A stretch of 64,000 nt of DNA from Vicinamibacterales bacterium (GTDB lineage: Bacteria; Acidobacteriota; Vicinamibacteria; Vicinamibacterales; 2-12-FULL-66-21). This document shows positions 1,965 to 63,582 of this stretch, one piece after another. The stretch covers positions 4,036-68,035 of the forward strand of contig DASWVN010000240.1 of assembly GCA_036401215.1 (NCBI GenBank). Reading direction: 5' to 3'. The translations under genes and the position numbers were made by a program. The notes below the pieces were generated by a model. The model was not told the DNA's origin. It saw nothing but the letters and a program-made list of their open reading frames with translations, and searched no databases. Numbering within the stretch: position 1 is the first letter of the stretch; each line of letters starts with the position of its first letter.

Positions 1965-2050
1965 CCCGCGCACCCCGCGCACCGCGCACCCCGGACCGCG
2001 CACCGCGCACTGCGCACCGCGCACCGCCCACCGCGCACCGCGCGGACCCC
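1965..2050. repeat. tandem heptamer tract (CGCGCAC-type units), single arm, flanked by direct ccccggacc
   Basis: cgcgcac cgcgcac tgcgcac cgcgcac cgcccac cgcgcac read directly; ccccggacc occurs at about 1990 and about 2046. Confidence 0.85.
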
Positions 2051-2057
2051 GGACCCG

Positions 2058-2912
2058 CTACTTCTTGCGCCGCTGCTCCGGCAGCCGCCGCTCCGATGGA
2101 CCGTCGTAGAGGTGATCCTTCGGATCGATCTGGCGCATCGGCGGATAGCGCTCGAACTCTTCGCGGGCCTGCGCGGTGATGCCAGGCACCCGGGAGATGA
2201 TGAACAGCGCGTTGGCCACCGCCGGCGGGATCCCGATGTCGCCGCAGACGGCAGCGATCGCGCCGTCGATGTTGACCGGCAGCGGCGTGCCGACCGCGCG
2301 CGCGGTGATCACCATCTCCACGGCGCGGATCATCTGGATGTGCTCGCCCTCCATTTCGAGTTCGAGCGCCATCTGGAACAGGCGGGCCGCACGCGGATCG
2401 CGGGTGTGGAAGCGGTGGCCGAAACCCGGCACGCCTTCGTCTGATTTCAAGGCTTCGTCCACGATCGCTTCAGCGGCCTGCTGGTAGCTCGCGCCCTGGC
2501 GCACCCGGGCGAGGCCCGCGTCCAGGAAGTGCATGCAGGATTCGATGTCGCCGCCGTGATAGCGGCCGAATCCCAGCAGGCCCGCGGCGACACACGCCCG
2601 GAGCGACGCCCCGGTCGTCGCCGTGTTCCGCGCCGCCAGCGTGGACGGCGGCGTGGCGCCGTGATCGATGAACGAGACGAGCACCGCCTCCATCAGGCTC
2701 GCGATCGACGGCGACGGAACTTCACCCATGAGCAGCAGGTAGATGGCTTCGCCGAAGGTGAGGCGTCCCATCATTTCGTCGAGCGGGTAGCCGCGCACCA
2801 GGATCTTGTTCGGCTCGATGCGCGTGAGTGCCGTCCGCCAGTTCTCGTCGTCGTGCCCGCGCCGCTCCTGGGCCCGCCGTTCCTTGCCGGGTGGTCGTGC
2901 TACCTTCACCAT
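2058..2912 (-). CDS. citryl-CoA lyase / citrate synthase-like protein
   Basis: 284 aa; citrate-synthase family motif GFGHRFHTRDPRA, small-domain-only architecture. Confidence 0.8.
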   Translation of the reverse strand: MVKVARPPGKERRAQERRGHDDENWRTALTRIEPNKILVRGYPLDEMMGRLTFGEAIYLLLMGEVPSPSIASLMEAVLVSFIDHGATPPSTLAARNTATTGASLRACVAAGLLGFGRYHGGDIESCMHFLDAGLARVRQGASYQQAAEAIVDEALKSDEGVPGFGHRFHTRDPRAARLFQMALELEMEGEHIQMIRAVEMVITARAVGTPLPVNIDGAIAAVCGDIGIPPAVANALFIISRVPGITAQAREEFERYPPMRQIDPKDHLYDGPSERRLPEQRRKK

Positions 2913-2925
2913 CTCGTTCGTCTCG

Positions 2926-3549
2926 CTATTCGGTTCCGTACAAGCGGTCCCCGAAATCTCCCAGGCCGGGCACGATGAACTTCTGTTCGTTGAGGCCGCG
3001 ATCGATGACGGGGGTGTAGATGTGCACGTCGGGATGGTGCCGCTCGACGAGCGCCACCCCTTCGGGAGCCGAGACGATGCAGATCATGCGGACCTGGTGG
3101 GCCCCGGCGTCGCGCAGCATGTCGAGCGCCGCCACGGCGCTGCCGCCCGTGGCGAGCATCGGATCGATCATCAGAACGAAACTGCCGCCGAGCGAGCTCG
3201 GCAGCTTGGCGTAGTACTTCGACGCGATCGCCGTCATCTCGTCGCGCTGCAGGCCGATATGGCCGACCCGGGCGCTCGGGATCAGCTCGAGGATCGCATC
3301 CAGCATGCCGAGACCGGCGCGAAGCACCGGCACGACCACGACATCCCCATTCACCCGCCGCCCCGCGGCCGGTCCGAGCGGGGTCGAGACGGTCAAATTC
3401 TCGGCCGGTAGATCCCGCGTGGCTTCGGCGGCCAGCAGCAGGCTGATCCGGACCGCCATCCGGCGAAACACTTCTGGAGGCGTGGTTTTGTCGCGCAGGA
3501 TGGCGAGCGCGTCGTGGACGAGCGGATGTTCGACAAGGTGAACCGGCAC
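2926..3549 (-). CDS. upp: uracil phosphoribosyltransferase
   Basis: 207 aa; MPVHLVEHPLVHDALAILRDKTT..., PRPP-binding loop VLMIDPMLATGGSA. Confidence 0.95.
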   Translation of the reverse strand: MPVHLVEHPLVHDALAILRDKTTPPEVFRRMAVRISLLLAAEATRDLPAENLTVSTPLGPAAGRRVNGDVVVVPVLRAGLGMLDAILELIPSARVGHIGLQRDEMTAIASKYYAKLPSSLGGSFVLMIDPMLATGGSAVAALDMLRDAGAHQVRMICIVSAPEGVALVERHHPDVHIYTPVIDRGLNEQKFIVPGLGDFGDRLYGTE

Positions 3550-3588
3550 CGGCCAAACTATACATTAGCCAGCTACAATCTAAGGCTC

Positions 3589-8250: not shown

Positions 8251-9633
8251 TCAAGCCGTCGCCTGGACGTCTCTCGATGTCGCGAACGTCTGGATCGGCA
8301 TGCGGAGCGACGCGCGGCAGCCGGTCGCATTGGGACGGTTTTCCAGGAGGAGGCTGCCGCCGTGCGCCTCGGCGATCTGGCGGCTCAGCACCAGACCGAT
8401 GCCGGAGCCTCCGGGCTTCGTCGTGAAGAACGGGACGAACAGATTGCCGGTGTTCGACAGGCCCGGTCCCTCGTCCTCGACCCAGAGTTCGACCGACGGC
8501 GGCGACGATCCGGGCAGACGATCCCAGCCGACCGTGACCGCACCGCCGGTTTCGCGGACCGCGTCCACCGCGTTGCGGATCAAGTTGATCATCAGCTGTT
8601 CCAACTGGTCCCCGTCCCCCTGGACCGTCACGCGCGGCCCCGGCTCGACGCGGATGTGATGCGCCTTCTCGAGCGTGACGACCCGGTCGACGAACGTGCC
8701 GATGTCGAGCGGACCGAGCTTCGGCGGGGGAAGCTTGGCGAGCCGTGCATAGGCGTTCATGAACCGGCTCAGTGATTCCGACCGCGAGGCGATGACTGCA
8801 AGACCGCGGGTCACGTCCTCACGCCAGTCGGGCGGCGGGGGATCGCGATCGATGATCGTGGAAAGGCTTCCTGCAATCGACTTGATCGGCGCGAGCGAGT
8901 TGTTCATCTCGTGGCCGATGACCCGAATCAGCCGCTGGAACGCCTGCCGTTCTTCTTCGCGCAGCGGCCGGCTCAGATCTGAGAGCACGAGCAGTTCGTG
9001 CGGCCGGCCGCCCTGGCGGAACTGGCTCCGCCGGACCTCCCAGCGTCCGACACCGCCGGGAAAGGCAGTGTTGATGACGCGCGGCGCTTCGCCGGCGAGA
9101 TACTGGTCGAGGCCGATCTCGTCCGCCGCACGCCCGAGCAGCCGCTCGACCGGCAGACCCAGAAGGCGCGCGCCCGCATTGTTCACGAATTTCAGTTCGC
9201 TCCTCTCGTCGAAGGTGTAGACGGCCACGTCGATCTCCGCCATCACCTTGCGCAGGAGCGTGGTGGCTTCGAGTGCGTCGAGCCGCTGGTGACGGAGGAT
9301 TTCGACGAGCGCGTTGACCTCGATCATCACCTGCCCGAGCGGGTCGCCGCCGCGGGCGCCGCGGGCGCGAATCGAGAAGTCCCCTTCGCCGAGCGCGGCG
9401 AGCAGGTTGGAGAGCGTCTGCAGCGGCAGCACCACGCGTTCACGTAACGCGAACGCAAATCCCAGGCAGAACACGACGATGAGGACCGAGAGGGTCCACT
9501 GGACCTTCGGCGTGTGGTCGCCGGTCCAGAGAAAGATCAAGGAGATGAGGGCGCCCGGCAGTGCCGAGGCGAGCGCCATCAAGAGGATGCGGCGGTCGTG
9601 ACTTAGACGAGGCTGACGGGGCGAAGTGGCCAC
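8251..9633 (-). CDS. sensor histidine kinase (two TM, HAMP/PAS, HisKA, HATPase_c)
   Basis: 460 aa; H-box VIGHEMNNSLAPIKS; G-boxes ...EDEGPGL...GGSGIGL. Confidence 0.9.
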   Translation of the reverse strand: MATSPRQPRLSHDRRILLMALASALPGALISLIFLWTGDHTPKVQWTLSVLIVVFCLGFAFALRERVVLPLQTLSNLLAALGEGDFSIRARGARGGDPLGQVMIEVNALVEILRHQRLDALEATTLLRKVMAEIDVAVYTFDERSELKFVNNAGARLLGLPVERLLGRAADEIGLDQYLAGEAPRVINTAFPGGVGRWEVRRSQFRQGGRPHELLVLSDLSRPLREEERQAFQRLIRVIGHEMNNSLAPIKSIAGSLSTIIDRDPPPPDWREDVTRGLAVIASRSESLSRFMNAYARLAKLPPPKLGPLDIGTFVDRVVTLEKAHHIRVEPGPRVTVQGDGDQLEQLMINLIRNAVDAVRETGGAVTVGWDRLPGSSPPSVELWVEDEGPGLSNTGNLFVPFFTTKPGGSGIGLVLSRQIAEAHGGSLLLENRPNATGCRASLRMPIQTFATSRDVQATA

Positions 9634-9640
9634 GGCTCTA

Positions 9641-9717
9641 TCAATGCTGAATGCCGAATGCCGAATGCTGAATGTTCATGCCGCATTCAGCATTTAGCAT
9701 TTCGCATTCAGCATTGA
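9641..9717. repeat. heptamer-built palindrome (GAATGCY units) between response-regulator and kinase genes
   Basis: tcaatgctgaatgccgaatgccgaatgctgaatg ... cattcagcatttagcatttcgcattcagcattga; the arms are near-perfect reverse complements. Confidence 0.9.
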
Positions 9718-9727
9718 CAAGCGTCTT

Positions 9728-11137
9728 TCACAGCCCGTATCGCTGCAGTCGCCGATACAGCGCGCTGCGGCTCAGGCCGAGCGCCTTGGCCGCCTGGCTG
9801 ACGTTGCCGTCGTAGCGGGTCATCGCCTTCTTGATCAGGAAGCACTCCACGTCCTCGAGGCTCATGTCCTCGAGCCGCCCCGGGGACGTCTGACCGGTGG
9901 AGCGGAGCCCGAGGTCGCCCGGCTTCACCTGCGGTCCCTGGGCCATGAGCACGGCACGCTCGACGGCGTGATCCAGCTCGCGGACGTTTCCCGGCCAGGC
10001 ATGCTCCAGCAGCATCTGCATGGCGCCGCTTTCGAAGCCGGTGAGCCGCTTGCGATACCGATTGGCATGCTGCCGGAGGAAGTGCTGGGCGAGCAGCGGA
10101 AGGTCTTCGCGCCGGTCGCGCAGCGGCGGGATCCGGATCTCGATCGTGTTGAGGCGGAAGAGCAGGTCCTGCCGGAAGCGTCCGGCGTTGACCTCCTCGT
10201 TGAGGTCGGCGTTGGTCGCCGAGAGGATCCGGACGTTCACGCGCCGCGTGCGCGAAGAACCAAGGCGTTCGAACTCGCCGGTCTCGATGACCCGAAGGAG
10301 CTTGGCCTGCTGGCTGAGGGGGACGTTGGCGATCTCGTCGAGAAAGAGCGTCGCCTGGTCGGCCAGCTCGAACCGTCCGACGCGGTCCGATTTCGCATCG
10401 GTGAATGCGCCGCGCACGTGGCCGAACAGTTCGCTCTCGAAGACGCCTTCGGAGACGCCTCCCGAGTTCACGATCACCATCGGCCTCGAGGCACGGCTCG
10501 ACACCGCATGCAGCGCGCGGGCGACGACTCCTTTGCCGGTGCCGTTCTCACCGAGGATCAGCACGTTGGCGTCGGACGGGCCGACGCGCGAGACGACCTG
10601 CAGCACGTTCTGCATCGCCGGGGATTCGGCGATGACCTTCGGCATCCCCTCGCCTCGCAGCAGCGAGTTCTCCGCTTCGAGCCGTTGCCCCTTGCGGATC
10701 GCCTGGCTCAACTCGATCTGGGTGCGGACGATCGCCAGCAGCCGCGCATTGTCCCACGGCTTCTGGATGAAGTCCCTCGCGCCGCGGCGCATGGCTTCGA
10801 CCGCGACCTCGACGCTGCCCCACGCCGTCATGACGACGACCGGAAGCGTCGGATCGATCCCCTGGATGCGCGACAGCAGATTGAGCCCCTCCTCGCCGGA
10901 GGTTGTATCGCGCGTGTAGTTCAAGTCGATCAGGGCGACGTCGAACTCCCGCGCTTCGACGGCGGCCAGCACGCCGGCGGGGGAGGAGGCGGTCTCGAGC
11001 TGGAACCCTTCTCCCTTCAACAGCAGCCGCAGGGCTTCGAGGACGTCGGACTGATCGTCGGCGATGAGGACGCGCGGGTCCGGCGATCGCAGCGCCGTCC
11101 GCTCGTCGCGGTCCTTGAGGTGATCGGTGATCAACAT
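9728..11137 (-). CDS. sigma-54-dependent Fis-family response regulator (NtrC-like)
   Basis: 469 aa; REC domain, AAA+ with GENGTGKG Walker A and GAFTDA (GAFTGA-type) sigma-54 contact loop, C-terminal HTH. Confidence 0.95.
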   Translation of the reverse strand: MLITDHLKDRDERTALRSPDPRVLIADDQSDVLEALRLLLKGEGFQLETASSPAGVLAAVEAREFDVALIDLNYTRDTTSGEEGLNLLSRIQGIDPTLPVVVMTAWGSVEVAVEAMRRGARDFIQKPWDNARLLAIVRTQIELSQAIRKGQRLEAENSLLRGEGMPKVIAESPAMQNVLQVVSRVGPSDANVLILGENGTGKGVVARALHAVSSRASRPMVIVNSGGVSEGVFESELFGHVRGAFTDAKSDRVGRFELADQATLFLDEIANVPLSQQAKLLRVIETGEFERLGSSRTRRVNVRILSATNADLNEEVNAGRFRQDLLFRLNTIEIRIPPLRDRREDLPLLAQHFLRQHANRYRKRLTGFESGAMQMLLEHAWPGNVRELDHAVERAVLMAQGPQVKPGDLGLRSTGQTSPGRLEDMSLEDVECFLIKKAMTRYDGNVSQAAKALGLSRSALYRRLQRYGL

Positions 11138-25420: not shown

Positions 25421-25429
25421 CACGCGCGC

Positions 25430-25548: not shown

Positions 25549-25633
25549 CGTAAGGCTGTTGCGGTCTGAAATCCTTGTGGCCGTCGTGGGTGCGCTGGTA
25601 TGATTGGGGTTCTGCCGAACGTCGTGAGACCGT

Positions 25634-43741: not shown

Positions 43742-43934
43742 CGCTCGCGCAGGACACCGCCGAACGCCGCGACTTTCAGGATCCAACTGCCAAATGCCCG
43801 TCTCCAACGTTCGAGATTCGGGTATAACGGCAACGATTTCCTTCCCAAAGGGTCTCCGGCTCGAGTGCCCGGGCCCTTGGCATCCTTCCTGCTGAGCAGC
43901 AAAGCGAATGCATGAATCGCGCGGAGCAGACATC

Positions 43935-44681
43935 ATGAGAAAAAGTGTGTGGCGACCCCTGCAGATCATCTTTGGCGCCCTGGCCATCATCACCGTGGTG
44001 GCACCGTCGCCGGCGGACGCCCAGATCAGGCGGGTGAGCAGCAGCAGCGACTGGCGTCAGGCCATCGGGTTCAACATCGGCTACTTCGTCGTGAAGGGGG
44101 AAGACTCGCGCGGCGAAGACGACGTCCTCTTCCGGGACCTGGACTCGCTGCTGTTCGACATCAAGGATTTCAACGGCCCGACGTTCGGCGCCGAATGGCT
44201 GGTGGGCGTCACGGACTACATCGAAGTCGGCGCCGGGGTGAACTACTACCAGCAGACGGTTCCGAGCATCTATCGCTTCCTCCAGCATGAGTCCGGGGCC
44301 GAGATCGAGCAGGACCTGAAACTCCGTCAGGTTCCGATCAATGCGACCGTCCGCTTCCTGCCGATCGGCCGCAACGCCGCCGTGCAGCCGTACATCGGCG
44401 CGGGCATTGGGTTCATCAACTGGCGCTACACGGAAACCGGTGAGTTCGTCGACGCCAACAGCGAGACCTTCCGCGCGACGTTCGAAGCCAACGGCACGGA
44501 GGTCGGTCCGGTGATCCTGGGCGGCATCCGGTTCCCCGTCTCAGACGTGTGGCTCGCCGGCGCGGAATTCCGCTGGCACTCGGCAGAGGGGGATACCGGC
44601 GGATTCGACGAAGGCTTCCTCGGCGAGAAGATCGAACTGGGCGGCTGGTCAACGAACTTCGCGATCCACTTCCGGTTCTGA
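43935..44681 (+). CDS. outer-membrane beta-barrel protein (OmpW/OmpA-like porin family)
   Basis: Signal MRKSVWRPLQIIFGALAIITVVAPSPADAQ; alternating beta pattern; C-terminal ...FAIHFRF. Confidence 0.8.
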   Translation: MRKSVWRPLQIIFGALAIITVVAPSPADAQIRRVSSSSDWRQAIGFNIGYFVVKGEDSRGEDDVLFRDLDSLLFDIKDFNGPTFGAEWLVGVTDYIEVGAGVNYYQQTVPSIYRFLQHESGAEIEQDLKLRQVPINATVRFLPIGRNAAVQPYIGAGIGFINWRYTETGEFVDANSETFRATFEANGTEVGPVILGGIRFPVSDVWLAGAEFRWHSAEGDTGGFDEGFLGEKIELGGWSTNFAIHFRF

Positions 44682-44690
44682 TCGCGTGTA

Positions 44691-44946
44691 GGGAACAGGG
44701 AACAGGGAACAGGGATCAGGGAACAGGGAACAGGGAACAGGGATCAGGGAACAGGGATCAGGGAACAGGGAACAGGGAACAGGGAGCAGGGAACAGGGAG
44801 CAGGGAACAGGGAACAGGGAACAGGGAACAGGGAACAGGGAGCAGGGAGCAGGGAACAGGGAACAGGGAACAGGGAACAGGGAGCAGGGAACAGGGAGCA
44901 GGGAACAGGGAGCAGGGAACAGGGAACAGAGAGACAGGGAACAGGG
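44691..44946. repeat. about 36 tandem heptamers GGGAACA (variants GGGATCA, GGGAGCA)
   Basis: Read directly. Preceded by tgatcgcgtgta, immediately after the OMP stop. Confidence 0.95.
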
Positions 44947-45003
44947 GGGCTCAGGGAATTGGTCCAGGAACGGTGAAGGGCGCGGCTTCAGTCTGCGCCG
45001 GCT

Positions 45004-45108
45004 CCCTAATCCCTAATCCCTAATCCCTAATCCCTAATCCCTAATCCCTAATCCCTGATCCCTGATCCCTGATCCCTGATCCCTGATCCCCGATCCCTGA
45101 TCCCTACT
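45004..45108. repeat. about 15 tandem heptamers: CCCTAAT x7, then CCCTGAT x about 7
   Basis: Read directly. Roughly 6/7 complementary per unit to the GGGAACA array. Overlaps the 3' end of the 45034-46656 CDS. Confidence 0.95.
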
Positions 45109-46656
45109 CGCTCGATACAGCCTGGCGCCGCCGCCTTCAGCCACCTTCTCGAATCCATCCAGCCAGCGCTCCCGCTGCGACGCGTGATGCAGCGTATCGC
45201 CGCCTTCCGCCGATCCCTCGATGACCAGCCAGCCGGCATGGCCGCGCGGCCGCAGCATCGCGAAGTGCCAAATCTCGCCATTCCCCTCGTGCAGGAAGTC
45301 CTTGATGTCGAACCCGGCGAGCGAGAGATCGTGCATGTAGTGCCCGAGGGAGCCCATGCTCATCATGATCTCGGTGCCGTCGTAGTGGTCCTGGAGGTAG
45401 GCCGTGATGGCGCGCCGGCCGGCCATGTTCCTGGCCTCGCGCTGTGACTCGCGGACGAGCGGCGCCTCGTGATCGAGCGGCCACGCCTGCCGCACCGTGA
45501 CGAGGACCAGCACGATCGCGACGATCGGACGCAGCGGACGCCACAGCACCGCGATCCCGCCGGCCGCCGCCGCCGCGCACGCGATGACCAGCGGCGTGTC
45601 GTAACGGATCCGGAACGGATGCCCTTCCATGTACGCGGAGATCGGCAGGGCCGCCGCCGCGAACAATGCGGTGATCAGCACCAGCGACGCGCGGTGCTTC
45701 GAGCGGACCATCGCCCACGCCAGCAGCGCGGCGCCCACGAACCCTGCGCGTGGGAGCGCCGTGCCCGCCAGGTCATAAAGTCCCTCTCGCAGCTGTCGCC
45801 ACGCAACGAGCGGACGACCCATTGCTTCCGTGTTCTCCGGCACGAAGAAGTCTCTCGGGACGAACCACGAACCGATGACCCACCGGCTGTTGGCCGAAAA
45901 GACGAGGATCGCAATGGCCGGCCACAGCGCAAGCCGCAGCACATCGGTGAGCGCCCGGCGTACCGGCACACCCCGGCGGAGCATCACGCCGAAGGCGAGC
46001 AGAAGGATCGCGGCCGTGATCGGCCAGGCTTCGTAACGGGTCAGGCACGCGGCCGCGAGCGCGATCCCGGGCAGGGTGTGACGTCTTTGGCTCTCGCTCG
46101 CGCCGCTTCCGCCTTCAGCCGGAACGCGGGCGTCCGCCCAGGCGGCGGTCGTCGCCACGGCGAACAACGTGAGTCCGAACAAGAGCGGTTCGGTCATCGG
46201 CGTGCTCTGAAGGTAGAGCACGTTCGGATTGATCATCAGCAGCACTGCGCCCGTGCCGGCCGCGACGACGGATCCGGTCGTCCGCAGCACGAGCGAGGCG
46301 AGCGAGCCTGCGCCAAGCGCCATCGAGAGGATCGAGATCGCGACCGCTGACACGCCGCTGCGATACCAGGCGTCCACCTGCACGGGCAGCATGTTCAGCA
46401 GGTGCGGCAGCGGCAGCCACACGGCCCCGATCTGCTGCCATCCCGGCGTGAGGCTGTCGAGGATCCGGCGCGCGACGACGAGATGCGCGCGCGCGTCGTA
46501 GTGGGCCAGCGTCAGACCGAGGGCGGAGTAGTGGAGCGCCGCGAGGGTCCCGGCGAGCGCCACGCACACGGCGAGGCCGAGCGTGATGATGCGATGTCGG
46601 TGCAGGGCCACTACCAGGCCGCTGGAATATGCCGGCCTGGATGGTAAATGGAACAT
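45034..46656 (-). CDS. polytopic membrane protein, GT-C fold glycosyltransferase-like (ArnT/PMT-like)
   Basis: 540 aa, many TM segments with a first-loop acidic motif region (HYDARAHLVVARRI) and a C-terminal soluble domain. The last about 25 aa (RDQGSGIRDQGSGIRDQGLGIRD) are encoded by the heptamer array. Start is uncertain (it lies inside a repeat). Confidence 0.7.
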   Translation of the reverse strand: MFHLPSRPAYSSGLVVALHRHRIITLGLAVCVALAGTLAALHYSALGLTLAHYDARAHLVVARRILDSLTPGWQQIGAVWLPLPHLLNMLPVQVDAWYRSGVSAVAISILSMALGAGSLASLVLRTTGSVVAAGTGAVLLMINPNVLYLQSTPMTEPLLFGLTLFAVATTAAWADARVPAEGGSGASESQRRHTLPGIALAAACLTRYEAWPITAAILLLAFGVMLRRGVPVRRALTDVLRLALWPAIAILVFSANSRWVIGSWFVPRDFFVPENTEAMGRPLVAWRQLREGLYDLAGTALPRAGFVGAALLAWAMVRSKHRASLVLITALFAAAALPISAYMEGHPFRIRYDTPLVIACAAAAAGGIAVLWRPLRPIVAIVLVLVTVRQAWPLDHEAPLVRESQREARNMAGRRAITAYLQDHYDGTEIMMSMGSLGHYMHDLSLAGFDIKDFLHEGNGEIWHFAMLRPRGHAGWLVIEGSAEGGDTLHHASQRERWLDGFEKVAEGGGARLYRASRDQGSGIRDQGSGIRDQGLGIRD

Positions 46657-46748
46657 GGCAAATGGAAAAGCCCCCTTGATTGGGGGAGCTTAACCATCTT
46701 CCATTTACCATCTTCCATGCAGGATGCGGTTTCCAGCATCCTGCCTAG
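46641..46748 (+). repeat. repeat family B copy 1 (GGTAAATGG/CCATCTT heptamer hairpin plus gcaggatgc...gcatcctgc hairpin plus CTAG)
   Basis: The core ccatcttccatttaccatcttccatgcaggatgcggtttccagcatcctgcctag is nearly identical to 63529-63582. Confidence 0.9.
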
Positions 46749-48363: not shown

Positions 48364-49136
48364 CGGCCAGAGAACGCACGGCGCGGGAAGCGGACCCGCA
48401 GATCACCGACATCCAGAAGGAGTTCGGCGCGCAGCGCTCGAAGCGCCAGCGCTACGCGGATCTCGTCATCGGCGAGGACGGATGGTGGCCGCTCGTCCGC
48501 TACGAGCTGGTCATGCTGCTGTCCTCGTGGGTGCCAGGTGCGCTGGGCCTCTTCCTGCGGTCGAAGCTCTATCCGTTGATCCTCGGACGCGTGGGCCGGA
48601 ACGTCGCGTTCGGGATGAACGTCGTGCTCCGTCATCCGAAGAAGATCGCCATCGGCGACAACGTGGTCGTCGACGATCAGTGCTGCCTCGACGCCAAGGG
48701 GAGCACGAACCACGGGATCGTGCTCGAGGACGGCGTGTTCGTCGGCCGCAATACGATCCTGAGCTGCAAGAACGGCGACATCCTGCTGGAAAAGGACGCG
48801 AACATCGGCTTCAACGTCGAAGTCTTCTCGGCCGCGCGAGTGCGCGTCGGCGCGCGGACGCTGATTGCCGCCTACACCTATCTCGTCGGCGGCGACCACC
48901 TCTACGACCGCACCGACGTGCCGGTCCTGCACCAGGGGCGAACGGCGCGCGGGATCGACGTCGGCGAGAACTGCTGGCTGGGCGCCCATGTCGTCGTGAC
49001 CGATGGCGCGACGATCGGCCGCGACGTCATCGTCGGCGCCGGATCCGTCGTGATCGGTGAAGTGCCCGAGTTCCACATCGTGGCCGGTTCCCCGGCCCGC
49101 GTCATCCGCGACCGGCGGGCGGCGGAATCCATCTAG
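48360..49136 (+). CDS. hexapeptide-repeat (LbH) acyl/acetyltransferase with N-terminal hydrophobic segment
   Basis: GTG at 48360 overlaps the GT2 stop; IGDNVVVDD..., VGENCWLGAHVVVTDGATIGRDVIVGAGSVV. Confidence 0.85.
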   Translation: MTARERTAREADPQITDIQKEFGAQRSKRQRYADLVIGEDGWWPLVRYELVMLLSSWVPGALGLFLRSKLYPLILGRVGRNVAFGMNVVLRHPKKIAIGDNVVVDDQCCLDAKGSTNHGIVLEDGVFVGRNTILSCKNGDILLEKDANIGFNVEVFSAARVRVGARTLIAAYTYLVGGDHLYDRTDVPVLHQGRTARGIDVGENCWLGAHVVVTDGATIGRDVIVGAGSVVIGEVPEFHIVAGSPARVIRDRRAAESI

Positions 49137-49140
49137 CTCC

Positions 49141-51030
49141 ATGTGCGGCATCGTCGGGATCGTCGAACGTGACCTGACGCGCCAGGTGCCTCCCGGCGCC
49201 GTCGAGCGCATGGTGCAGACGCTCCATCATCGCGGGCCCGACGAAGAGGGAGCCATCAACCTTCCCGGGGTCGCGCTGGCGATGCGCCGGCTGGCGATCG
49301 TCGATCTTGCCGGCGGCCAGCAGCCGCTCAGCAACGAGGACGGCACCATCCACATGGTGGCCAACGGCGAGATCTACAACTTCGAGGAGGTCAAGCAGGA
49401 GCTGATCGCGAAGGGCCACCGGTTCCGCTCGCGGGTGGACGTCGAGGTCATCGTCCACGGCTACGAGGAGTGGGGTCCGCAGTTCCTCTCGCGGCTGAAG
49501 GGGATGTTCGCGCTCGCCGTGTGGGACAGCCGGACGAAGACGCTGCTGGCGGCGCGCGATCGGGCCGGCGAGAAGCCGCTCTACTACACGACGACGGCTG
49601 AGGGGCTCCTGCTCGGATCCGAGATCAAGGCGATCCTCGCGCGCCCGGGTGTGGATCGCTCGCTGGACCTCGAGGCGCTCGATCAGTTCCTCACCTACGA
49701 GTACATCATCGCGCCGCGGACGATCTTCTCGTCCATCCGCAAGCTGCCGCCGGCGCACTACCTGCTGTATCGCGACAGCCAGGTCAGCGTCCATCGCTAC
49801 TGGGACGCGGCCGACGTTCGCGTCCGCGAGTGGAGCGACGCGGATGCCGCGGACGCGCTGCGCGACTCGCTTCGCCGCGCCGTGAACAGCCAGATGATGG
49901 CCGATGTGCCCGTCGGTGTGTTCCTGTCGGGCGGGATCGATTCGAGCACCATCGCCGTGCTCATGCAGAAGGAGACCGCGGGCGAGCGCGTCCGCAGCTT
50001 CAGCATGGGGTTCGACGACGGGAGCTACAACGAGCTGCCGTACGCGCGCGAGATTGCGGCGCTCTGTGGCACGCAGCACATCGAGGGGATGGTGACGCCC
50101 GACGTCGAAACGCTGTTCGACCGTCTCGTCGTCCATCTCGACGAACCGTTCGCCGACGTGTCGCTCTTCCCGACGTTCATGGTCTCGCAGATGGCGCGGG
50201 AGCACGTGAAGGTGGTGCTCAGCGGGGACGGTGGCGATGAGTTGTTCGGCGGCTACGACGCCTACGAGGCGCAGGCGCTGGCCGCGAAGTGGGGAAGCCT
50301 CGCGCCTGGATCGGCGGTCCGCGCCATGGATACGCTGCTCGAGGCCGTGCCTCCGACATCGAAGAAGAAGGGGCTCGTCAACAAGACGCGGCGCTTCGTT
50401 GCCGGCCTTGCGGGCGCGCCTGCCGACATCGAGCACTACCGCTGGATGACGTTTCTGTCGCCAGATGCCAGGCGGCGCCTGTACACCCGGCGCTTCCAGG
50501 ACGCGTTGATCGCCTCCGACGTCTACGAGCCGGTGCGATCCGCGCTGCGGCGGGCGGGAGGGGACGATCTGCTCAACCGTCAGCTGTACGCGGACCTGTG
50601 CATCTACCTCGCCGACGACATCCTCGTGAAAGTGGATCGCATGAGCATGGCGACCTCCCTCGAGACGCGGGCGCCGTTTCTCGACGTCGACGTCATGGAG
50701 CTGGCGTTCTCGATGCCGGGCCATCTCAAGATTCGGGACGGCCAGCGGAAGTTCGTCCTCAAGGAGGCGCTGCGCGGCCTCGTCCCCGATCGCATCCTGA
50801 AGCGCAAGAAGGAAGGCTTCAGCATCCCGATGAAGAACTGGCTGCGCAAGGAGCTTGCGCCGCTGATGGAATCGTTGCTGTCGGAGGAGCGGGTGGAGGC
50901 GCGCGGACTGTTGGAACCGGCGGAAGTCCGCAAGCTGATGGTTCAACACAAGGCCGGACGGGCCAATCACGCGCACGTCCTCTTCAGCCTGATGGTCTTC
51001 GAGAGGTGGGCGCAAGCCTTTGTGGACTGA
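49141..51030 (+). CDS. asnB: asparagine synthase (glutamine-hydrolysing) family amidotransferase
   Basis: MCGIVGI Ntn start; SGGIDSS PP-loop. Confidence 0.93.
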   Translation: MCGIVGIVERDLTRQVPPGAVERMVQTLHHRGPDEEGAINLPGVALAMRRLAIVDLAGGQQPLSNEDGTIHMVANGEIYNFEEVKQELIAKGHRFRSRVDVEVIVHGYEEWGPQFLSRLKGMFALAVWDSRTKTLLAARDRAGEKPLYYTTTAEGLLLGSEIKAILARPGVDRSLDLEALDQFLTYEYIIAPRTIFSSIRKLPPAHYLLYRDSQVSVHRYWDAADVRVREWSDADAADALRDSLRRAVNSQMMADVPVGVFLSGGIDSSTIAVLMQKETAGERVRSFSMGFDDGSYNELPYAREIAALCGTQHIEGMVTPDVETLFDRLVVHLDEPFADVSLFPTFMVSQMAREHVKVVLSGDGGDELFGGYDAYEAQALAAKWGSLAPGSAVRAMDTLLEAVPPTSKKKGLVNKTRRFVAGLAGAPADIEHYRWMTFLSPDARRRLYTRRFQDALIASDVYEPVRSALRRAGGDDLLNRQLYADLCIYLADDILVKVDRMSMATSLETRAPFLDVDVMELAFSMPGHLKIRDGQRKFVLKEALRGLVPDRILKRKKEGFSIPMKNWLRKELAPLMESLLSEERVEARGLLEPAEVRKLMVQHKAGRANHAHVLFSLMVFERWAQAFVD

Positions 51031-51126
51031 CGCGTGTCAACTTCCAGGCGGCCAACTTCCAACTCCCAAAATGATTGGAATTTGGAATTTGGAACTTGGG
51101 AGTTGGAAGTTGGAAGTTGGGAGTTA
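51027..51126. repeat. heptamer-built palindrome (CCAACTT/GGAAGTT units) between convergent asnB-like and glpD-like genes
   Basis: ctgacgcgtgtcaacttccaggcggccaacttccaactcccaaa...tttggaacttgggagttggaagttggaagttgggagtt. Confidence 0.9.
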
Positions 51127-52686
51127 GACAGCGAGCTCACGTTCGAGCGAAGCGATCTCGCGCGAGACTCTTTCCGAGTCCCACCCGCATTCGACGGCCA
51201 TGACGATGGCGGCGGCGCGTAGCACGTCGGGACCGGGGTGGCCGCCGGCGGCGAGGTCGGTCCGCCGCAGAGCGGCGTCCGCGAGCGTGTGGGCCATCTC
51301 GCGGCGGACTGCGTAGAGGATCTCCGCGCGGGTCACATGGGTGCCGGGGGACACCGGGTCGAGAGCGTCGGCAGGGAGTTCGGTGAACAGGGTTCCGTAG
51401 CGGGAGATGAGCCGCTCACGTCCGGGATGCTGCTGCCGGTATCGGGCCAGGCCGGCAAAGGATGCGCCGGTCAGCGGTTCGATCGGCGGATCCTGCACAG
51501 GACGGCCAAGGATTTCGCAGGCGAGCCGTGCGGCCTGTTGCGCCGTCGCACCCGCGGTCGTATAACGAACGCCGACGACCGACAGCAGGCCGGCCACGCC
51601 GTCGGCGCGGTGATCGCGGACGATGCTGTGTTTCAGGAGCGCGCCATGCGCCGATCCGTTCGGCTGGGCGGGCAGCAGGCCGCGGTGCACGAGGCGGATC
51701 GCGCCGGGGTTCAGGCGGGCGCCCGGGAACGCTTCGGCGCCGTCCCGCAGCAGCGCCTCGACGTCGGCTGGCGTCGGCGCGTGCCGCGGATCCTGCACGA
51801 AGCCCTCGTGCGAGGTGCCGAGGATCGAGCGATCGCGCCACGGGACGAGAAAGAGGAACCGCCCTCTGGAAAGGCCGCCGATCGCATGGCGCAGCGGAGA
51901 ATGATCGACGACGAGGTTCATGGCGAGCGAGAATCCGGCTTCGGTTTCCGCCGTGATGCCGCTGGCGGCCAGCAGTTGCCAGGTCCACGGACCGGCGGCG
52001 TTGATGACGAGCCGTCCGCGAACGTCGAGGGCGGTGCCGGTGAGCCGGTCGACCGCGTGCACGCCGGAGATGTGATCGTTGCGGCGAATGAGGTGGCGGA
52101 CCTCGACGTAGTTCGCCGCCGCCGCGCCGGCGTCGGTCATCGTCCGCAGGAGGGCGATCGCGAGCCGTTCGGGGCTATGGAGTTGATAGTCGTGCCAGAC
52201 CGCCGCGCCGGTCAGCCCGCGGCGGCCGACGAGCGGATTCAGCTCGAGTGCCCGCCGGCGGCCGACGGTGTAGCTCGCCGGCAGGTGGACGGCGGCATCG
52301 AGGTCGTCGTTGCGGTCACGGGAGATCGCGTCGTAGGCGAGCAGGAACAGGCGCATCGCGGTCCGGTTGCGGATCGGATGCCGCGCCGTCGGCACGACGA
52401 AGGGCATCACGCGGACCAGATGCGGCGCCATCGCGGCAATGGCGCGGCGCTCGCGGACGAACTGGCGGGCCTCGTCGATCGCGCCGTGCTGGAGCGGGCG
52501 GATGCCGCCGTGGACGGTTTTCAGGCTGTTGAAGGACGTGGCGCCGCCGAAATCGCGGCGTTCGAGGAGCGCGACCGACAGGCCGCGCCGGGTCAGCGCG
52601 TGCGCGGTGGAGAGGCCGTAAATGCCTCCGCCCACGACGATCACATCGAAGGTGTCGTCGGCCAGTCGCGCGAGGGTACGTTGCAT
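51124..52686 (-). CDS. FAD-dependent glycerol-3-phosphate dehydrogenase/oxidase family protein
   Basis: 520 aa; DVIVVGGGIYGLSTA dinucleotide fold, ...GGATSFNSLKTVHGGIR. Confidence 0.88.
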   Translation of the reverse strand: MQRTLARLADDTFDVIVVGGGIYGLSTAHALTRRGLSVALLERRDFGGATSFNSLKTVHGGIRPLQHGAIDEARQFVRERRAIAAMAPHLVRVMPFVVPTARHPIRNRTAMRLFLLAYDAISRDRNDDLDAAVHLPASYTVGRRRALELNPLVGRRGLTGAAVWHDYQLHSPERLAIALLRTMTDAGAAAANYVEVRHLIRRNDHISGVHAVDRLTGTALDVRGRLVINAAGPWTWQLLAASGITAETEAGFSLAMNLVVDHSPLRHAIGGLSRGRFLFLVPWRDRSILGTSHEGFVQDPRHAPTPADVEALLRDGAEAFPGARLNPGAIRLVHRGLLPAQPNGSAHGALLKHSIVRDHRADGVAGLLSVVGVRYTTAGATAQQAARLACEILGRPVQDPPIEPLTGASFAGLARYRQQHPGRERLISRYGTLFTELPADALDPVSPGTHVTRAEILYAVRREMAHTLADAALRRTDLAAGGHPGPDVLRAAAIVMAVECGWDSERVSREIASLERELAV

Positions 52687-57689: not shown

Positions 57690-57881
57690 GGCGCCCCTTT
57701 ATCGCCCTTTATAGGGGCTTTGGCCAGTTTCAGAGCCGGCCTTCGGCCGGGGTTCCAGAGGGTTCCAGAAGGTTCTCGAGGGTTCCAGTCGGTTCCAGTG
57801 GTTCCGGGTTCTTCGTGGCGGCGCGCGTGGTACGTGCGGTACCCCTCGGCTGTAGGGCGCCCCTTTACGGGGCGCCGGAAC
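57686..57881. repeat. intergenic element bounded by 16 nt direct repeat GTAGGGCGCCCCTTTA, with GGTTCCAGNG decamer tract and GGCGCCCC-TTTAC-GGGGCGCC hairpin
   Basis: Direct repeats at 57686-57701 and 57852-57867. Hairpin at 57856-57876 is identical (as reverse complement) to 39597-39617. Confidence 0.9.
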
Positions 57882-61309: not shown

Positions 61310-61349
61310 GATGTCGGTTCCGGGGGGCCGTTAGAGATTGGCCAGCGTT

Positions 61350-62504
61350 CTACCGGGCATCCGCCAGCGCCGCCGCCGCCTTGTGCTGATGCCGGCGCCG
61401 CTCTCCCTGAGCCCGGACCAGGAACTTCGCGTAGGGGACGATCTGCTTGATCGCGGCCACGTTCATCTGGCACGGGCTCAGGCAGGTGGGGCACTTGTGG
61501 TCGCGGATGAAGTCGCGGTGCTCCTGGCTGGCGGCGGCGAAGTACAACGCCTCGGGATCCGTGTCCTTGACGTTGCCGACCACGTCGCTGTTCTCGCAGA
61601 AGAAGAGGCCGCCGTCAGGGTTCAGCATGATCCCCTGCGTCTGGAACGGGCAGGGGGCCGTGCGGTGATAGCCGTTGGCGATCATGTCCGCGTAGTGCAT
61701 GTAGATGTAGTTCTGCCCGTCCATCAACGGATCCATGCGGACCCGGTCCAGGAAGAACTGCCGCATCCGCTCCTCCTCGGGGCCGATGGGCTTCCACTTC
61801 ACTTCGAGCTGCTCGTTCCCGAGCATGGCATCGGTGAACCGCACCATGTTGAAGACGATGTCGAGCTTTTCCTTCTTCGCCCAGGCGAGGATGTTCTCGG
61901 CGTCATCCAGGTTCATGTGGAAGATGGTCGTCGAGACGCCGAAGTTGAAGCGGTGCTTCTTCTGCAGCTCCTGCATCGCCCGGATCGTCTGGTTCGCCTT
62001 CTCGAACCCGCGCTTCACCTTCCGCACCTGGTTGTGCATCTCGCCGACGCCGTCGATCGAAACGCGGAAGCTGAAGATGACGTTGCGCTCCTCGCAGAGT
62101 TCCACGATCTTCGTCAGCATCGGGATGGCGCGGTGAGGCGTCAGCCCCGTCGTGTTGAGCCCGAACTTGCGCAGACGCGGAAGCTTGTCGAGCATCACCC
62201 GCGCGATATCGACGAGGTCGTTTCGCGTCGTCGGTTCGCCGCCGGAGATGTTGGCGTTCTCGATGTTCTTCCAGAGCGGCGAGTCGAAGCACTTCTCGAT
62301 CTCGGCCAGCGTCATGTCTTTCTTGCGGTCCCCCCTCGTCCAGTTGCTGCACATCTCGCAGCGCGCATCGCAGACGAACGTGCAGTGAAAGATCAGCACG
62401 GTCGGATGGATGGGCTTCATTTTTGCGACGACGCTGTTGACGAGGTCCCGGGGGGCCGAGACGGCAGCCTTGGCGAGATATTTCAGGGCGTAGACTTGCG
62501 CCAT
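61350..62504 (-). CDS. radical SAM enzyme with SPASM/twitch-like C-terminal Cys motifs
   Basis: 384 aa; CDARCEMC (CxxxCxxC), GGEPT; C-terminal CPFQ...FFCENS...CPTCLSPCQ. Confidence 0.88.
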   Translation of the reverse strand: MAQVYALKYLAKAAVSAPRDLVNSVVAKMKPIHPTVLIFHCTFVCDARCEMCSNWTRGDRKKDMTLAEIEKCFDSPLWKNIENANISGGEPTTRNDLVDIARVMLDKLPRLRKFGLNTTGLTPHRAIPMLTKIVELCEERNVIFSFRVSIDGVGEMHNQVRKVKRGFEKANQTIRAMQELQKKHRFNFGVSTTIFHMNLDDAENILAWAKKEKLDIVFNMVRFTDAMLGNEQLEVKWKPIGPEEERMRQFFLDRVRMDPLMDGQNYIYMHYADMIANGYHRTAPCPFQTQGIMLNPDGGLFFCENSDVVGNVKDTDPEALYFAAASQEHRDFIRDHKCPTCLSPCQMNVAAIKQIVPYAKFLVRAQGERRRHQHKAAAALADAR

Positions 62505-62516
62505 AAGTGATTGATT

Positions 62517-63443
62517 TTAGGACTTTTTCTGGCGCAGGTAAAGAATGGCGCCGGGCACGTTGGTCGCGATACCGCTCAGCACGATGAGCGTCGTGAGCGC
62601 GAGTGCCTCGCTTTCCGGGACCCCCACCGGGGTCAGCAGCCACACCATGAGGGCCTGCGGCGCGCCGAATCCGCTGATCGAGATCGGAAGAAGCAGCGCG
62701 ATCAGGCCCACCGGCATGAACAACAGGTAGTACCCGAACGGCACGTCGATGCCGATCCCCTGGCCGAGCACATAGGCCTGGAAGATTCGCAGGAGCTGCA
62801 CGCCGACCGACAGCGCCAGCACGAGCGCGACGGCGCCGCGGTGGCCCCGGTAGGCGGCCAGCGCGTCGGCGTAGCGGAGCGCGCGGATCCCGATCCGCCG
62901 CTCCGCAAGCGCCGGCGGCATCAGCGCCCGGACCCAGGAGTCGGCCCACAGGAACGCGACCGAAGCAACGACGCCGAGAGCCGCGCCCGACATCAGGACG
63001 GCCTGGCCGTCCGCGCCGCGCCGCCAGAACGCCGCCCCGACGAGCCCGACGAGCAGGATCGAGATGAGCCCGAGCAGGCGATCGGCTGCCACAGAGGCGA
63101 TCGCCGCGCCACCCTGTGAGGTGCGCTGCGTGAGCGTGTACGCACGCGCGAGATCGGCGCCCACCCCGGCGGGCAGAAAGCTGCCGACGAACGAGCTGAC
63201 GAGATAGATCCAGGTCGCCGATTTGGTGGAAATGGGTTGACCGGCGGCGCGCAGCAACACGAGCCAGCGCGTGACCATGACGGCGCGGTCGATGACCAGC
63301 AGCCCGCCGACGAGCGCCAGCGTCCAGAGGTCCAGCCGGCCGATCGCGCGGAGCGTCTCGCCGCCGTCGATCTTGCGCAGGATCAACGCGAGCACCGCAA
63401 CGGTGACGAGGGCGCGGATCCAGAACGACCGGCTGAGCGTCAC
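62517..63443 (-). CDS. UPF0104 / lysyl-PG-synthase-TM-like flippase-like membrane protein
   Basis: 308 aa; 8 TM pattern, ...LVSSFVGSFLPAGVGADLARAY... Confidence 0.8.
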   Translation of the reverse strand: MTLSRSFWIRALVTVAVLALILRKIDGGETLRAIGRLDLWTLALVGGLLVIDRAVMVTRWLVLLRAAGQPISTKSATWIYLVSSFVGSFLPAGVGADLARAYTLTQRTSQGGAAIASVAADRLLGLISILLVGLVGAAFWRRGADGQAVLMSGAALGVVASVAFLWADSWVRALMPPALAERRIGIRALRYADALAAYRGHRGAVALVLALSVGVQLLRIFQAYVLGQGIGIDVPFGYYLLFMPVGLIALLLPISISGFGAPQALMVWLLTPVGVPESEALALTTLIVLSGIATNVPGAILYLRQKKS

Positions 63444-63476
63444 GTCACACCAGGCCGGTGGCAGCTCTCAGCCTGA

Positions 63477-63582
63477 ATGGGAAATGGTAAATGGAAAATG
63501 GCAAAGCGTCCGGATGATGACCGGTTTGCCATCTTCCATCTACCATCTTCCATGCAGGATGCGTTCTTCAGCATCCTGCTAG
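63477..63582 (+). repeat. repeat family B copy 2
   Basis: atgggaaatggtaaatggaaaatggcaaa...tttgccatcttccatctaccatcttccatgcaggatgcgttcttcagcatcctgctag. The terminal CTA is the stop codon of the upstream methyltransferase. Confidence 0.9.

Follow-up and report, generated by a model that had tools for sequence, protein, structure and literature searches.

Arrays of tandem 7-nt units, most of them arranged as two reverse-complementary arms, lie at nine intergenic sites in a 64,000-nt stretch of DNA from a Vicinamibacterales bacterium (Acidobacteriota; contig DASWVN010000240.1, positions 4,036 to 68,035), which we call the window and in which position 1 is the first letter. We find that period 7 occurs far beyond chance and order-wide in Vicinamibacterales, and that the arrays behave as hypermutable DNA palindromes, which change by whole units and in both arms together, are deleted between direct repeats and are limited in their placement by coding sequence. 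The explanation that we favor, and consider probable, is that they are heptanucleotide long simple-sequence repeats (LSSRs), mostly in palindromic pairs, and the Vicinamibacterales counterpart of the short tandemly repeated repetitive (STRR) sequences and of GGGNATC repeats. The element class is thus a known one, and the novelty lies in the lineage, in how varied the units are, in the high share of palindromes and in the repeated independent gain at the same junctions.

Excess of period 7 in Vicinamibacterales

We counted arrays in the window together with 80 loci of relatives (sample 1, 1.04 Mb) and in an independent set of 80 metagenome contigs (sample 2, 0.53 Mb). All Vicinamibacterales-type DNA together came to 1.87 Mb, and the outgroup consisted of 1.21 Mb of other bacteria around recA, with a non-acidobacterial subset of 0.88 Mb. 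These samples are gene neighborhoods rather than whole genomes, and some loci overlap; loci of relatives are given below by their L numbers. Arrays were identified with Tandem Repeats Finder (TRF) and by direct reading, genes with Pfam and NCBIfam, and RNAs with Rfam and ARAGORN.

An earlier first-pass annotation of the window had proposed a family of elements with a period of 7, and four independent counts find an excess of that period. Non-redundant TRF arrays with a score of at least 50 numbered 28 at period 7 in sample 1 and no more than 4 at each of periods 5, 6 and 8–12. In a strict lag-autocorrelation scan of the same sample, lag 7 had 24 runs and lag 14 had 16; no other lag between 4 and 13 had more than 2, and shuffled sequence had none. 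Period 7 also led in sample 2 with 16 arrays, followed by period 8 with 10. Perfect arrays of at least three copies in the 1.87 Mb numbered 60 for 7-mers, compared with 1, 5, 7, 4 and 1 for 5-, 6-, 8-, 9- and 10-mers, and with the threshold raised to four copies, 25 arrays remained for 7-mers and no other unit length between 4 and 12 had more than 2. The whole outgroup held two perfect 7-mer arrays of at least three copies. TRF found six period-7 arrays in its non-acidobacterial subset, and five of these lie in Geobacter/Desulfuromonadales-type contigs, which agrees with the Geobacter literature discussed below.

The period had been said to stay constant among loci, and this did not hold, since some relatives carry hairpins of like architecture built from 8-nt units (L063 12234–12347, L154 9227–9259, L143 699–732, L100 9050–9316, L136 3274–3448 and L160 152–187). 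One such octamer unit, TCATCTGG, occurs in three contigs, and the octamer hairpins are placed and built as the heptamer hairpins are.

Palindromic architecture of the window arrays

TRF and direct reading recover arrays at all nine of the sites first noticed, with strict 7-nt periodicity at eight of them; at 25430/25960, periods 6 and 7 are mixed. The arrays and their settings are as follows.

1964–2043: single array without inverted partner, CCGCGCA in about 10–11 copies (TRF 1975–2043, score 110); 14 nt past the stop (2058–2060) of a citrate-synthase-like gene, minus strand, and upstream of the integrase gene 333–1595, minus strand.
9641–9715: heptamer hairpin with a GAATGCY arm, a 9-nt loop and a GCATTYN arm (TRF arms 9643–9674, AATGCCG, and 9683–9715, GCATTCA); occupies the whole 94-nt gap in a two-component operon, between a sigma-54 response regulator (9728–11137, minus) and a histidine kinase (8251–9633, minus; Pfam).
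25428–25550: left arm of a long-range inverted repeat, mixed GGTGCT and GGGTGCT units (TRF periods 6, 11, 31 and 54, also 18; scores 91–126); begins 8–22 nt past the upstream stop codon.
25634–25709, plus: tRNA-Phe (GAA), between the GGTGCTG and CAGCACC arms (Rfam RF00005, 75 bits; ARAGORN).
25960–26071: right arm, CCAGCA and CCAGCAC units (TRF scores 93–108), reverse complement of 25428–25550 and 414 nt apart from it.
26560–26645: heptamer hairpin of AAACTCC, GAACTAT, GAACGCC and GAACTAT plus their mirror image (TRF arms 26575–26606, GAACTAT, and 26609–26641, GAGTTCA); between a hypothetical gene (26081–26518, plus) and an FtsB-like gene (26669–27058, plus; NCBIfam FtsB).
38255–38309, plus: single array, stop TGA, leader CGCGTGTC, then six copies of AACTCCA (TRF 38266–38309, 6.3 copies, score 81); G-free and unstructured, in the spacer between ccmB (37574–38257) and ccmC (38322–38978; Pfam CcmB, Cytochrom_C_asm).
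44690–44946: array of 36.6 copies of AGGGAAC with GGGATCA and GGGAGCA variants (TRF score 428); starts 8 nt past the stop of an outer-membrane beta-barrel gene (43908–44681, plus; Pfam OMP_b-brl).
45003–45106: array of (TCCCTAA)7 followed by (TCCCTGA)8, 14.9 copies in all (TRF score 152).
46612–46745: copy 1 of a composite element of about 130 nt, between a divergent gene for a 540-aa protein (minus) and a DedA/VTT gene (plus); made up of a short stem CCAGGC..GCCTGG, a heptamer hairpin at 46641–46718 of ATGGNAA units with a GC-rich apical stem-loop (TRF arms 46641–46669 and 46693–46718), and a hairpin GCAGGATGC..GCATCCTGC.
51031–51123: leader CGCGTGTC and heptamer hairpin, with a CAACTTC/CAACTCC arm (left, 51039–51069) against a TTGGAAK/TTGGGAG arm (right, 51075–51125; TRF); the exact gap between the stops of asparagine synthase (49057–51030, plus) and a glycerol-3-phosphate dehydrogenase-like gene (51124–52686, minus; Pfam).
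63452–63582: copy 2 of the composite element, with a heptamer hairpin at 63476–63553 of AATGGNA and CCATCTN units (TRF arms 63476–63505 and 63529–63553) and a second hairpin at 63554–63582 that overlaps the stop of the gene at 63579–63974 (minus); an LPG-synthase-like gene (62517–63443, minus) lies downstream.

Most of the sites had been described as two arms that are reverse complements of each other, and 7 of the 9 are indeed inverted pairs. In folding, five loci give long hairpins on both strands (9634–9727, 26555–26655, 46636–46723, 51031–51123 and 63468–63590), with energies of about −38 to −70 kcal/mol and z scores of −4.7 to −11.5, and when the window folds were compared with 200 shuffles, 0 of the 200 folded as well as these five. 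For the 9641 hairpin, the RNA folds at −52.8 kcal/mol on the minus strand and −51.7 on the plus strand (z −8.4 and −9.5); for 26560, the values are −63.7 (plus) and −67.0 (minus), with z about −11.4 on both strands; for 46641, −38.4 and −44.4; for 51031, −42.5 and −36.2 (z −6.2 and −6.7). The 63468 hairpin folds at −70.0 kcal/mol on the minus (sense) strand compared with −60.5 on the plus strand. The single arrays at 1975 and 38266 fold no better than shuffles (z −1.8 and +1.3).

The two other pairs are spread further apart. By reading, the arms at 25428–25550 and 25960–26071 are mirror copies of about 115 nt each with a common landmark, GGGTGCCCGGGGG, and the arrays at 44690 and 45003, the largest of the window, are near-complements in which 5 of 7 positions pair (arm alignment score 116). 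Variant units are mirrored in order between the arms at 26560 and at 25430/25960. Because variant units are mirrored in this way and both strands fold about equally well, we conclude that the pairs are true DNA palindromes and not arrays that grew independently. Among relatives, where hairpin pairs were delimited by arm alignment, a mirror partner is present in about 25 of 58 array clusters, or roughly half of the non-coding clusters.

The inverted repeat at 25428–26071 could pair across the pre-tRNA or permit inversion of the 414-nt segment. Arrays do not generally bracket a tRNA, as the similar GGGTGCT palindromes of L043, L150 and L157 hold none.

Turnover by whole units at orthologous junctions

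No close strain of the window species was found, either in a search for exact proteins or by an exact DNA match to the core of the 130-nt element. The closest relatives of the 540-aa membrane protein (45034–46656, minus) have 72–74% identity and come from metagenome-assembled genomes (MAGs) labeled Vicinamibacterales or Acidobacteriota, and the metagenome contigs hold nothing nearer to it at the protein level. Copy-number change was therefore followed in near-identical pairs among relatives.

Comparison of orthologous regions for variation in unit number had been proposed as a check, and near-identical genomes of relatives do differ by whole units. Many of the indels of at least 5 nt between locus pairs that are 89–99.9% identical fall in arrays. 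In L008 and L094, which are 98.7% identical, the two arms of a GGTTCAR hairpin both differ, the left by 14 nt and the right by 29 nt, and an octamer array differs by exactly one unit (8 nt). The GGTTCAG array is remodeled between L014 and L018, whose loci are 95% identical, and L043 and L157 differ by multiple indels within arrays. In L085, a 57-nt heptamer hairpin stands between 7-nt direct repeats, CGCTCTA, and L005 has the empty site. This difference is best read as a deletion between the direct repeats, because L085 keeps the conserved ...ALYR C-terminus.

Two junctions could be compared across many genomes. The first lies 3′ of a YfcE-type phosphoesterase gene, between convergent genes, where about 25 of 64 orthologues have heptamer arrays or hairpins, with units that are nearly all different (GGTTCAG, CGGGATC, GAATGCT, CCAACTC, CGCTGTT, AATTGGG and others), and the remainder have REP-like palindromes (discussed below) or nothing. 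Two loci whose orthologous proteins are 98% identical have the same unit there and differ in copy number and in neighboring sequence, and L010, at about 88% protein identity to the array-bearing L014, has no array at this junction.

The second is the ccmB–ccmC junction, which is compact in 39 of 81 genomes (at most 30 nt, with some stop/start overlaps) and exceeds 60 nt in 28. Clear tandem periodicity is present in 14, the best period is 7 in 14 of 14, and the units differ. The L244 array has the same leader and unit as the window (CTGACGCGTGTCAAYTCCAAAC), and that array was therefore inherited. In L255, the unit CGAGGTY matches the sequence 'TGA CGAGG' found at this junction in other genomes, which points to duplication in situ. 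Taken together, the two junctions show clearly that arrays were gained repeatedly and independently at the same places. We also observed a hairpin core, GCG(C/T)GGGGGTGGGGCCCC(A/G)CGC followed by AGTAA or similar, that recurs beside heptamer arrays in expanded ccmB–ccmC spacers (L256, L264, L269, L270, L272, L288, L295 and L307) and that may be another dispersed element or a conserved RNA.

The same comparisons bear on whether the arrays are artefacts of assembly, from collapsed or chimeric reads. Assemblers have difficulty with tandem repeats, and MAGs built from short reads may give wrong copy numbers, but arrays lie at orthologous sites in over 100 independent assemblies (MAGs and metagenomes) from different projects, heterogeneous variant units are mirrored between arms, and arrays are read through within conserved open reading frames (ORFs). 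We regard an artefact as excluded in practice and its likelihood as negligible.

The direct repeats of L085 and the local origin of the L255 unit would also be expected if the arrays were footprints of a transposase, integrase or repair nuclease that cuts with a 7-bp stagger, so that every round of insertion and excision or of fill-in would add one duplication of the local 7-bp target, and such an enzyme would account for both the sharp period and the locus-specific units. No such enzyme is seen in the window, however, and none is known. Arrays of 36 copies and the patterns of unit variants fit slippage, period-8 arrays coexist with those of period 7, and heptamers dominate in unrelated phyla according to the literature cited in PMC4679880, which favors a general over a lineage-specific cause. 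We therefore give this explanation very little weight.

Placement at gene ends

The elements had been reported after stop codons, between convergent genes and inside operons, and we confirm all three settings. Every window array except that at 46641, which lies between divergent genes, is 3′ of at least one gene, and most are 0–22 nt from a stop codon, with 26560 at 41 nt. In relatives, where genes were called by a crude finder based on GC3, a stop codon lay within 15 nt of 24 of the 58 array clusters. Arrays reach the last conserved codon and at times go beyond it. In several relatives, the stop codon lies within the first repeat unit. In the window, translation of the 45003 array on the minus strand gives the last ~24 residues of the convergent 540-aa gene, so that the protein reads ...GGGARLYRAS and then RDQGSGI repeats, and the array encodes its stop. 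The RDQGSGI unit is present three times in the tail encoded at 45034–45106 (minus), and array-coded tails or stops are likewise present in L008, L012, L076, L022 and L037.

Arrays also occur inside coding sequence where the protein tolerates them. In four relatives, a single variable loop of the 540-aa protein, flanked by ...AAW.. and ..LACLTRYEAWP, carries in-frame insertions:

L051 6503–6567: heptamer array.
L064 6521–6650: heptamer array.
L069 6505–6545: REP-like palindrome.
L079 5514–5570: 21-nt tandem repeat beside REP-like palindromes.

At the other end of this gene, the longest-ORF starts of the 540-aa gene (46656) and of the DedA/VTT gene (46724) both fall inside the composite element at 46612–46745. 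The true starts are probably further in, because homologues of the 540-aa protein align only from residue ~17. Relatives of this protein with 47–50% identity are also encoded in L036, L048, L060 and L072, which are titled Bifidobacterium or Bifidobacteriaceae MAGs; three of the four have the syntenic phosphoesterase, and their repeat types are as in Vicinamibacterales. These labels are probably wrong.

Unit sequences and copies shared between loci

Each locus had been thought to have a unit of its own. Units do differ among most loci, but in two locus pairs of the window the likeness extends beyond the repeat itself, and different genomes use some of the same units, so the proposed contrast with repetitive extragenic palindromic (REP) sequences and bacterial interspersed mosaic elements (BIMEs), which rested on unshared sequence, is not supported. 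The first pair is the composite element: the copies at 46612–46745 and 63452–63582 have about 80% identity (BLAST, 92% over 51 nt), with sharp homology boundaries, unrelated flanks and aligned identity confined to the element. The second pair is formed by the 38255 and 51029 loci, which share the 16-mer CTGACGCGTGTCAACT and AACTYCC units. From the composite copies and the shared 16-mer leader, we conclude that some copying between loci occurs. Other genomes have the units AACTCCC, GGTTCAG, AATGCTG, GGGTGCT and GGGATYN again, at loci that are unrelated.

A near-palindromic leader, (T)GACGCGTGTC, stands between the stop codon and the first unit at several arrays, namely at 38256, 51029, 9716 and 25405 in the window (the last two with 1 mismatch), at L007 12750, and upstream of ccmC in L244. 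We considered this leader as a general terminus of the elements and rejected it, as only 4 of 154 matches (at most 1 mismatch, in 1 Mb) adjoin arrays; in that scan, the exact copy at 51029 was left unscored since TRF missed its left arm.

Such sharing is what would be expected of non-autonomous mobile elements of the REP or miniature inverted-repeat transposable element (MITE) kind, mobilized in trans by an enzyme whose gene lies in another part of the genome, with the different units representing element families. The two composite copies with their sharp boundaries, the 16-mer and AACTYCC units at two unlinked loci with the leader again in L007 and L244, and the identical units at non-orthologous loci in many genomes can all be read in this way, as can the presence or absence of a whole hairpin flanked by a 7-nt direct repeat in L085 and L005 and the arrays in the protein loop at the spot where REP-like palindromes sit in other genomes. 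Dispersed copies in the window amount to 2 + 2. However, no termini are conserved across the families, and the one 7-nt-flanked indel is better read as a deletion, as the ...ALYR C-terminus is kept in L085. Change in copy number unit by unit and the local origin of the L255 unit point to growth in situ, and the core of the ~130-nt element has no exact match in 185,579 species genomes. The 64-kb window holds no transposase and no REP-associated tyrosine transposase (RAYT, a Y1 transposase); its sole mobile-type gene is the phage-family integrase at 333–1595. We consider mobility in trans a rather unlikely general explanation of the arrays.

Unit composition is biased as well. Among 59 independent period-7 loci, GGG or CCC is present in 51% of units compared with 20% of neighboring 7-mers (p = 2e-7). 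Units favor GGGNNNN, with a strand skew of G versus C of 0.55 against 0.33, and the commonest unit is AACTCCC/GGGAGTT. This triplet excess and skew would be explained if the arrays were G-quadruplex or i-motif elements, as has been proposed for the GGGNATC repeats of Xanthomonas and Nostoc; selection would then act on the G3N4 unit, and its structure would modulate transcription, termination or replication at the gene end. The 44690 array is such a G3N4 repeat on the sense strand of the beta-barrel gene, and the two largest arrays, (GGGAACA)36 and, on the other strand, (TYAGGGA)15, are each G-rich on the sense strand of the adjoining gene. On the sense strand of the ccmB–ccmC arrays, 11 are G-rich and 3 are C-rich, a bias that is suggestive and has also been reported for Xanthomonas, and formation of G-quadruplexes in vitro by such heptamers has been published (PMC4692102). 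Set against this, about half of the units are incompetent (GAATGCY, GAACTAT, AATGGNA, CCGCGCA and CAAAGTT); in the window, a G3 tract is present in the 44690 and 45003 arrays and absent from the units at 9641, 26560, 46641, 63476 and 1975. Where a locus is palindromic, all of the G-rich arm pairs with the C-rich arm, a quadruplex does not require a 4-nt loop, so that period 7 is left unexplained, and the Xanthomonas study reports no regulatory role (PMC4692102). Selection for quadruplexes is unlikely, in our view, to be what the arrays are for.

Relation to known repeat systems

The elements had been taken for an undescribed class, yet heptanucleotide repeats are already documented in cyanobacteria, in Xanthomonas and Nostoc, and in Geobacter. 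According to Mrazek et al. (2007), as cited in PMC4679880 and PMC4692102, heptanucleotides are the most abundant LSSRs in most prokaryotic genomes, and 7 nt has been suggested as the stretch that contacts DNA polymerase, favoring slippage, which is the one published idea on the cause of the preference. The Vicinamibacterales arrays resemble LSSRs in having at least 3–4 tandem 7-nt copies, an excess of length 7 and, among relatives, whole-unit change; the non-coding bias and the proposed polymerase slippage of that survey are also as here, and palindromic pairing and recurrence at orthologous junctions do not appear in it as relayed by those two papers.

The STRRs of cyanobacteria are built of 7-bp units and form intergenic hairpins, the hupS–hupL spacer being one such site; roles in transcript stability or translational coupling have been suggested for them (PMC2670836), and three heptanucleotide families in Calothrix are cited in PMC4692102. 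STRRs and the arrays described here have in common tandem 7-bp units, several families per genome, an intergenic location that includes operon spacers, and the capacity to form hairpins (PMC2670836). STRRs are found in heterocystous cyanobacteria and have few consensus units, whereas the Vicinamibacterales units are other and more varied, most loci here are full palindromes abutting stops, and there is no conservation of the fingerprinting type. As both the phylum and the units are different, the Vicinamibacterales arrays are analogous to STRRs and not strict members.

In Xanthomonas, about 186 GGGAATC-type arrays of 2–26 units are ~90% intergenic, include 70–75 inverted pairs and average 28 nt from the upstream ORF, with no regulatory role found (Rehm et al. 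2015, PMC4692102). The Xanthomonas and Nostoc repeats (GGGAATC and GGGGAYT) are like the present arrays in being heptamers near the end of the upstream ORF with frequent inverted pairs (here, the 24 of 58 clusters near stops and the ~25 pairs), and the Xanthomonas G3N4 units resemble GGGAACA, GGGATCA and GGGATTA of the window. Xanthomonas has essentially one unit (GGGANTN), however, compared with dozens in Vicinamibacterales, of which half have no G-tract, and period-8 versions exist here. The TAACTGA repeats of Beggiatoaceae and cyanobacteria are intergenic direct heptamers of 2–6 copies, some overlapping ORF ends, but they have one conserved unit, lie mostly directly upstream of starts and are almost never inverted (PMC4679880).

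Geobacter metallireducens has several families of 3–5 tandem heptamers (GGGACCG, MTYCTGA and others) between and within genes (PMC2700814). Some of its sites are paired on opposite strands, and the Geobacter-type control loci in our outgroup also contain period-7 arrays, but the Geobacter families are conserved, multicopy and fixed in copy number and have been read as regulator sites or RNA elements (PMC2700814), whereas the Vicinamibacterales arrays vary freely. That annotation as putative global-regulator sites, some in opposite-strand pairs, raises the idea of iterons, that is, arrays of binding sites with one 7-nt unit per protein monomer, where the protein might be a global regulator, might belong to the nucleoid, or might bind RNA or ssDNA through an OB fold, as cold-shock proteins do; CspB, as discussed in PMC4679880, binds heptamer repeats with one protein per unit. 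Dozens of unrelated units are beyond one sequence-specific protein, arrays come and go at one junction between close relatives, their sites are mostly 3′ ends and not promoters, and no candidate protein has been identified. For these reasons, we think it very unlikely that the arrays are iterons.

The arrays share with REPs and BIMEs the form of intergenic palindromes past stops and between convergent genes that are tolerated in operons, and differ in that units vary among loci, with only two pairs sharing sequence within 64 kb. REPs have units of 20–40 nt without a 7-nt period inside them, each family has a single conserved sequence, and they can stabilize upstream mRNA. A full-text literature search found no paper linking Acidobacteria with heptamer repeats.

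A proposed explanation by slippage and mirroring

We propose that an array would begin as a tandem duplication of a local 7-nt string and then grow and shrink by whole units via slipped-strand mispairing, slippage being the engine that we infer. Many arrays would subsequently gain a mirror-image partner, presumably by template switching or a similar replication error, to give a long DNA palindrome whose arms change together. Loss would occur by deletion between short direct repeats, there may be occasional copying to other loci, and arrays would survive only where selection permits, which is past stops, in convergent gaps, in operon spacers and in a tolerant protein loop. G-rich single arrays would be tolerated inside operons.

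Where they are transcribed, the palindromes are predicted to form very stable stem-loops without a U-tract (−32 to −70 kcal/mol), which would most plausibly serve as transcript-end or insulator hairpins that block read-through or 3′ exonucleases. They are not canonical rho-independent terminators, a distinction already drawn in the first-pass annotation. An intrinsic terminator was considered and rejected: at least 5 T in 8 nt were present in only 4 of 46 hairpin tails, and the stems are 25–40 bp. A scan for terminator-like structures showed no enrichment (11 found versus 7.7 ± 2.7 expected), and the only match to the terminator form is the apex of the 46641 hairpin on the minus strand.

Several observations weigh against the explanation that we favor. 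Simple slippage leaves unexplained the sharp optimum at 7, the origin of mirror-image arms, the preference for GGG or CCC, and the identical leader-plus-array and 130-nt composite copies at unlinked loci. The densities rest on few gene neighborhoods, and a 136-kb sample of Vicinamibacterales-like contigs around recA was much poorer in arrays. With regard to transcripts, the scarcity of T-rich tails counts here as well, and for sense-strand folding bias, which G–U asymmetry could reveal, the sense strand folded better at only 3 of nine co-directional loci. The lack of a sense-strand advantage in six of the nine gives no sign of selection on RNA, and 63468, where the sense strand is ahead by 9.5 kcal/mol, is an isolated case. 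Hairpins are missing from many orthologous junctions, so none is needed there. With neither T-tracts nor a sense-strand bias, a role as 3′ stem-loops in transcripts is one that we infer, as is every role at the RNA level. We regard the arrays in the main as fast-evolving, tolerated DNA structures whose effects on transcripts are probable yet dispensable, and the compared loci show no sign that any particular array is required.

As they stand, none of the rival explanations explains the sharp preference for 7. Vicinamibacterales might conceivably have an active process by which 7-nt tandem duplications are seeded and afterwards mirrored, so that permissive gene ends would keep receiving new palindromic hairpins. 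The result would be self-renewing, sequence-independent stem-loops at gene ends, with a position that persists and a sequence that is replaced, an idea that we hold to be speculative and improbable. Its source may be a property of the replication or repair machinery, or an unrecognized nuclease with 7-bp staggered cuts. The 14 of 14 period-7 arrays at ccmB–ccmC and the coupled arms of the 98.7% identical pair are compatible with such a process without demonstrating it.

The preference of long bacterial repeats for 7 nt and the function of STRR-type hairpins have been questions since the 1990s in cyanobacteria and since the survey of 2007. Vicinamibacterales are abundant soil bacteria with hundreds of MAGs, and they provide a natural experiment, in which a tightly packed junction such as ccmB–ccmC has undergone many independent expansions, in every case with period 7 and with differing units. 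Comparison across the order makes seeding, expansion rate, arm mirroring and the selective filters (G-richness of the strand and adjacency to stops) measurable. There is also an impact on annotation, as arrays encode spurious C-terminal tails, supply stops, hide starts (46656 and 46724) and break short-read assemblies; automatic annotation would report the array-coded tails as lineage-specific low-complexity protein.

Other features of the window

The window has a G+C content of 66%, and its gene content is ordinary chromosomal. It includes genes for citrate synthase, an NtrC-type two-component pair, a MacB/HlyD efflux system, RsgA, tRNA-Phe, FtsB, RecA, thiolase, ccm cytochrome c maturation, EPSP synthase, asparagine synthase and glycerol-3-phosphate dehydrogenase. 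Rfam gave no match at any array, and tRNA-Phe was its only match in the window. The integrase gene at 333–1595 (minus), of the phage-family tyrosine type, lies directly downstream of the CCGCGCA array and the citrate-synthase-like gene.

The window also holds a separate family of GC-rich REP-like hairpins, at 39563–39660, 57690–57718 and 57856–57879. A 24-nt sequence, GGCGCCCCGTAAAGGGGCGCC, is identical at 39594–39617 and, inverted, at 57856–57879. At 39.6 kb, it forms the apex of a non-periodic palindrome of about 100 nt downstream of the phosphoesterase gene, a site at which relatives have heptamer hairpins or other REP-like palindromes (of the GCAGGCCTTCAGGCCTGC type). The only clear intergenic array of the window with a period other than 7 lies at 57750–57798, where 4.9 copies of the period-10 unit GGGTTCCAGA stand between convergent genes with REP-like hairpins on either side.

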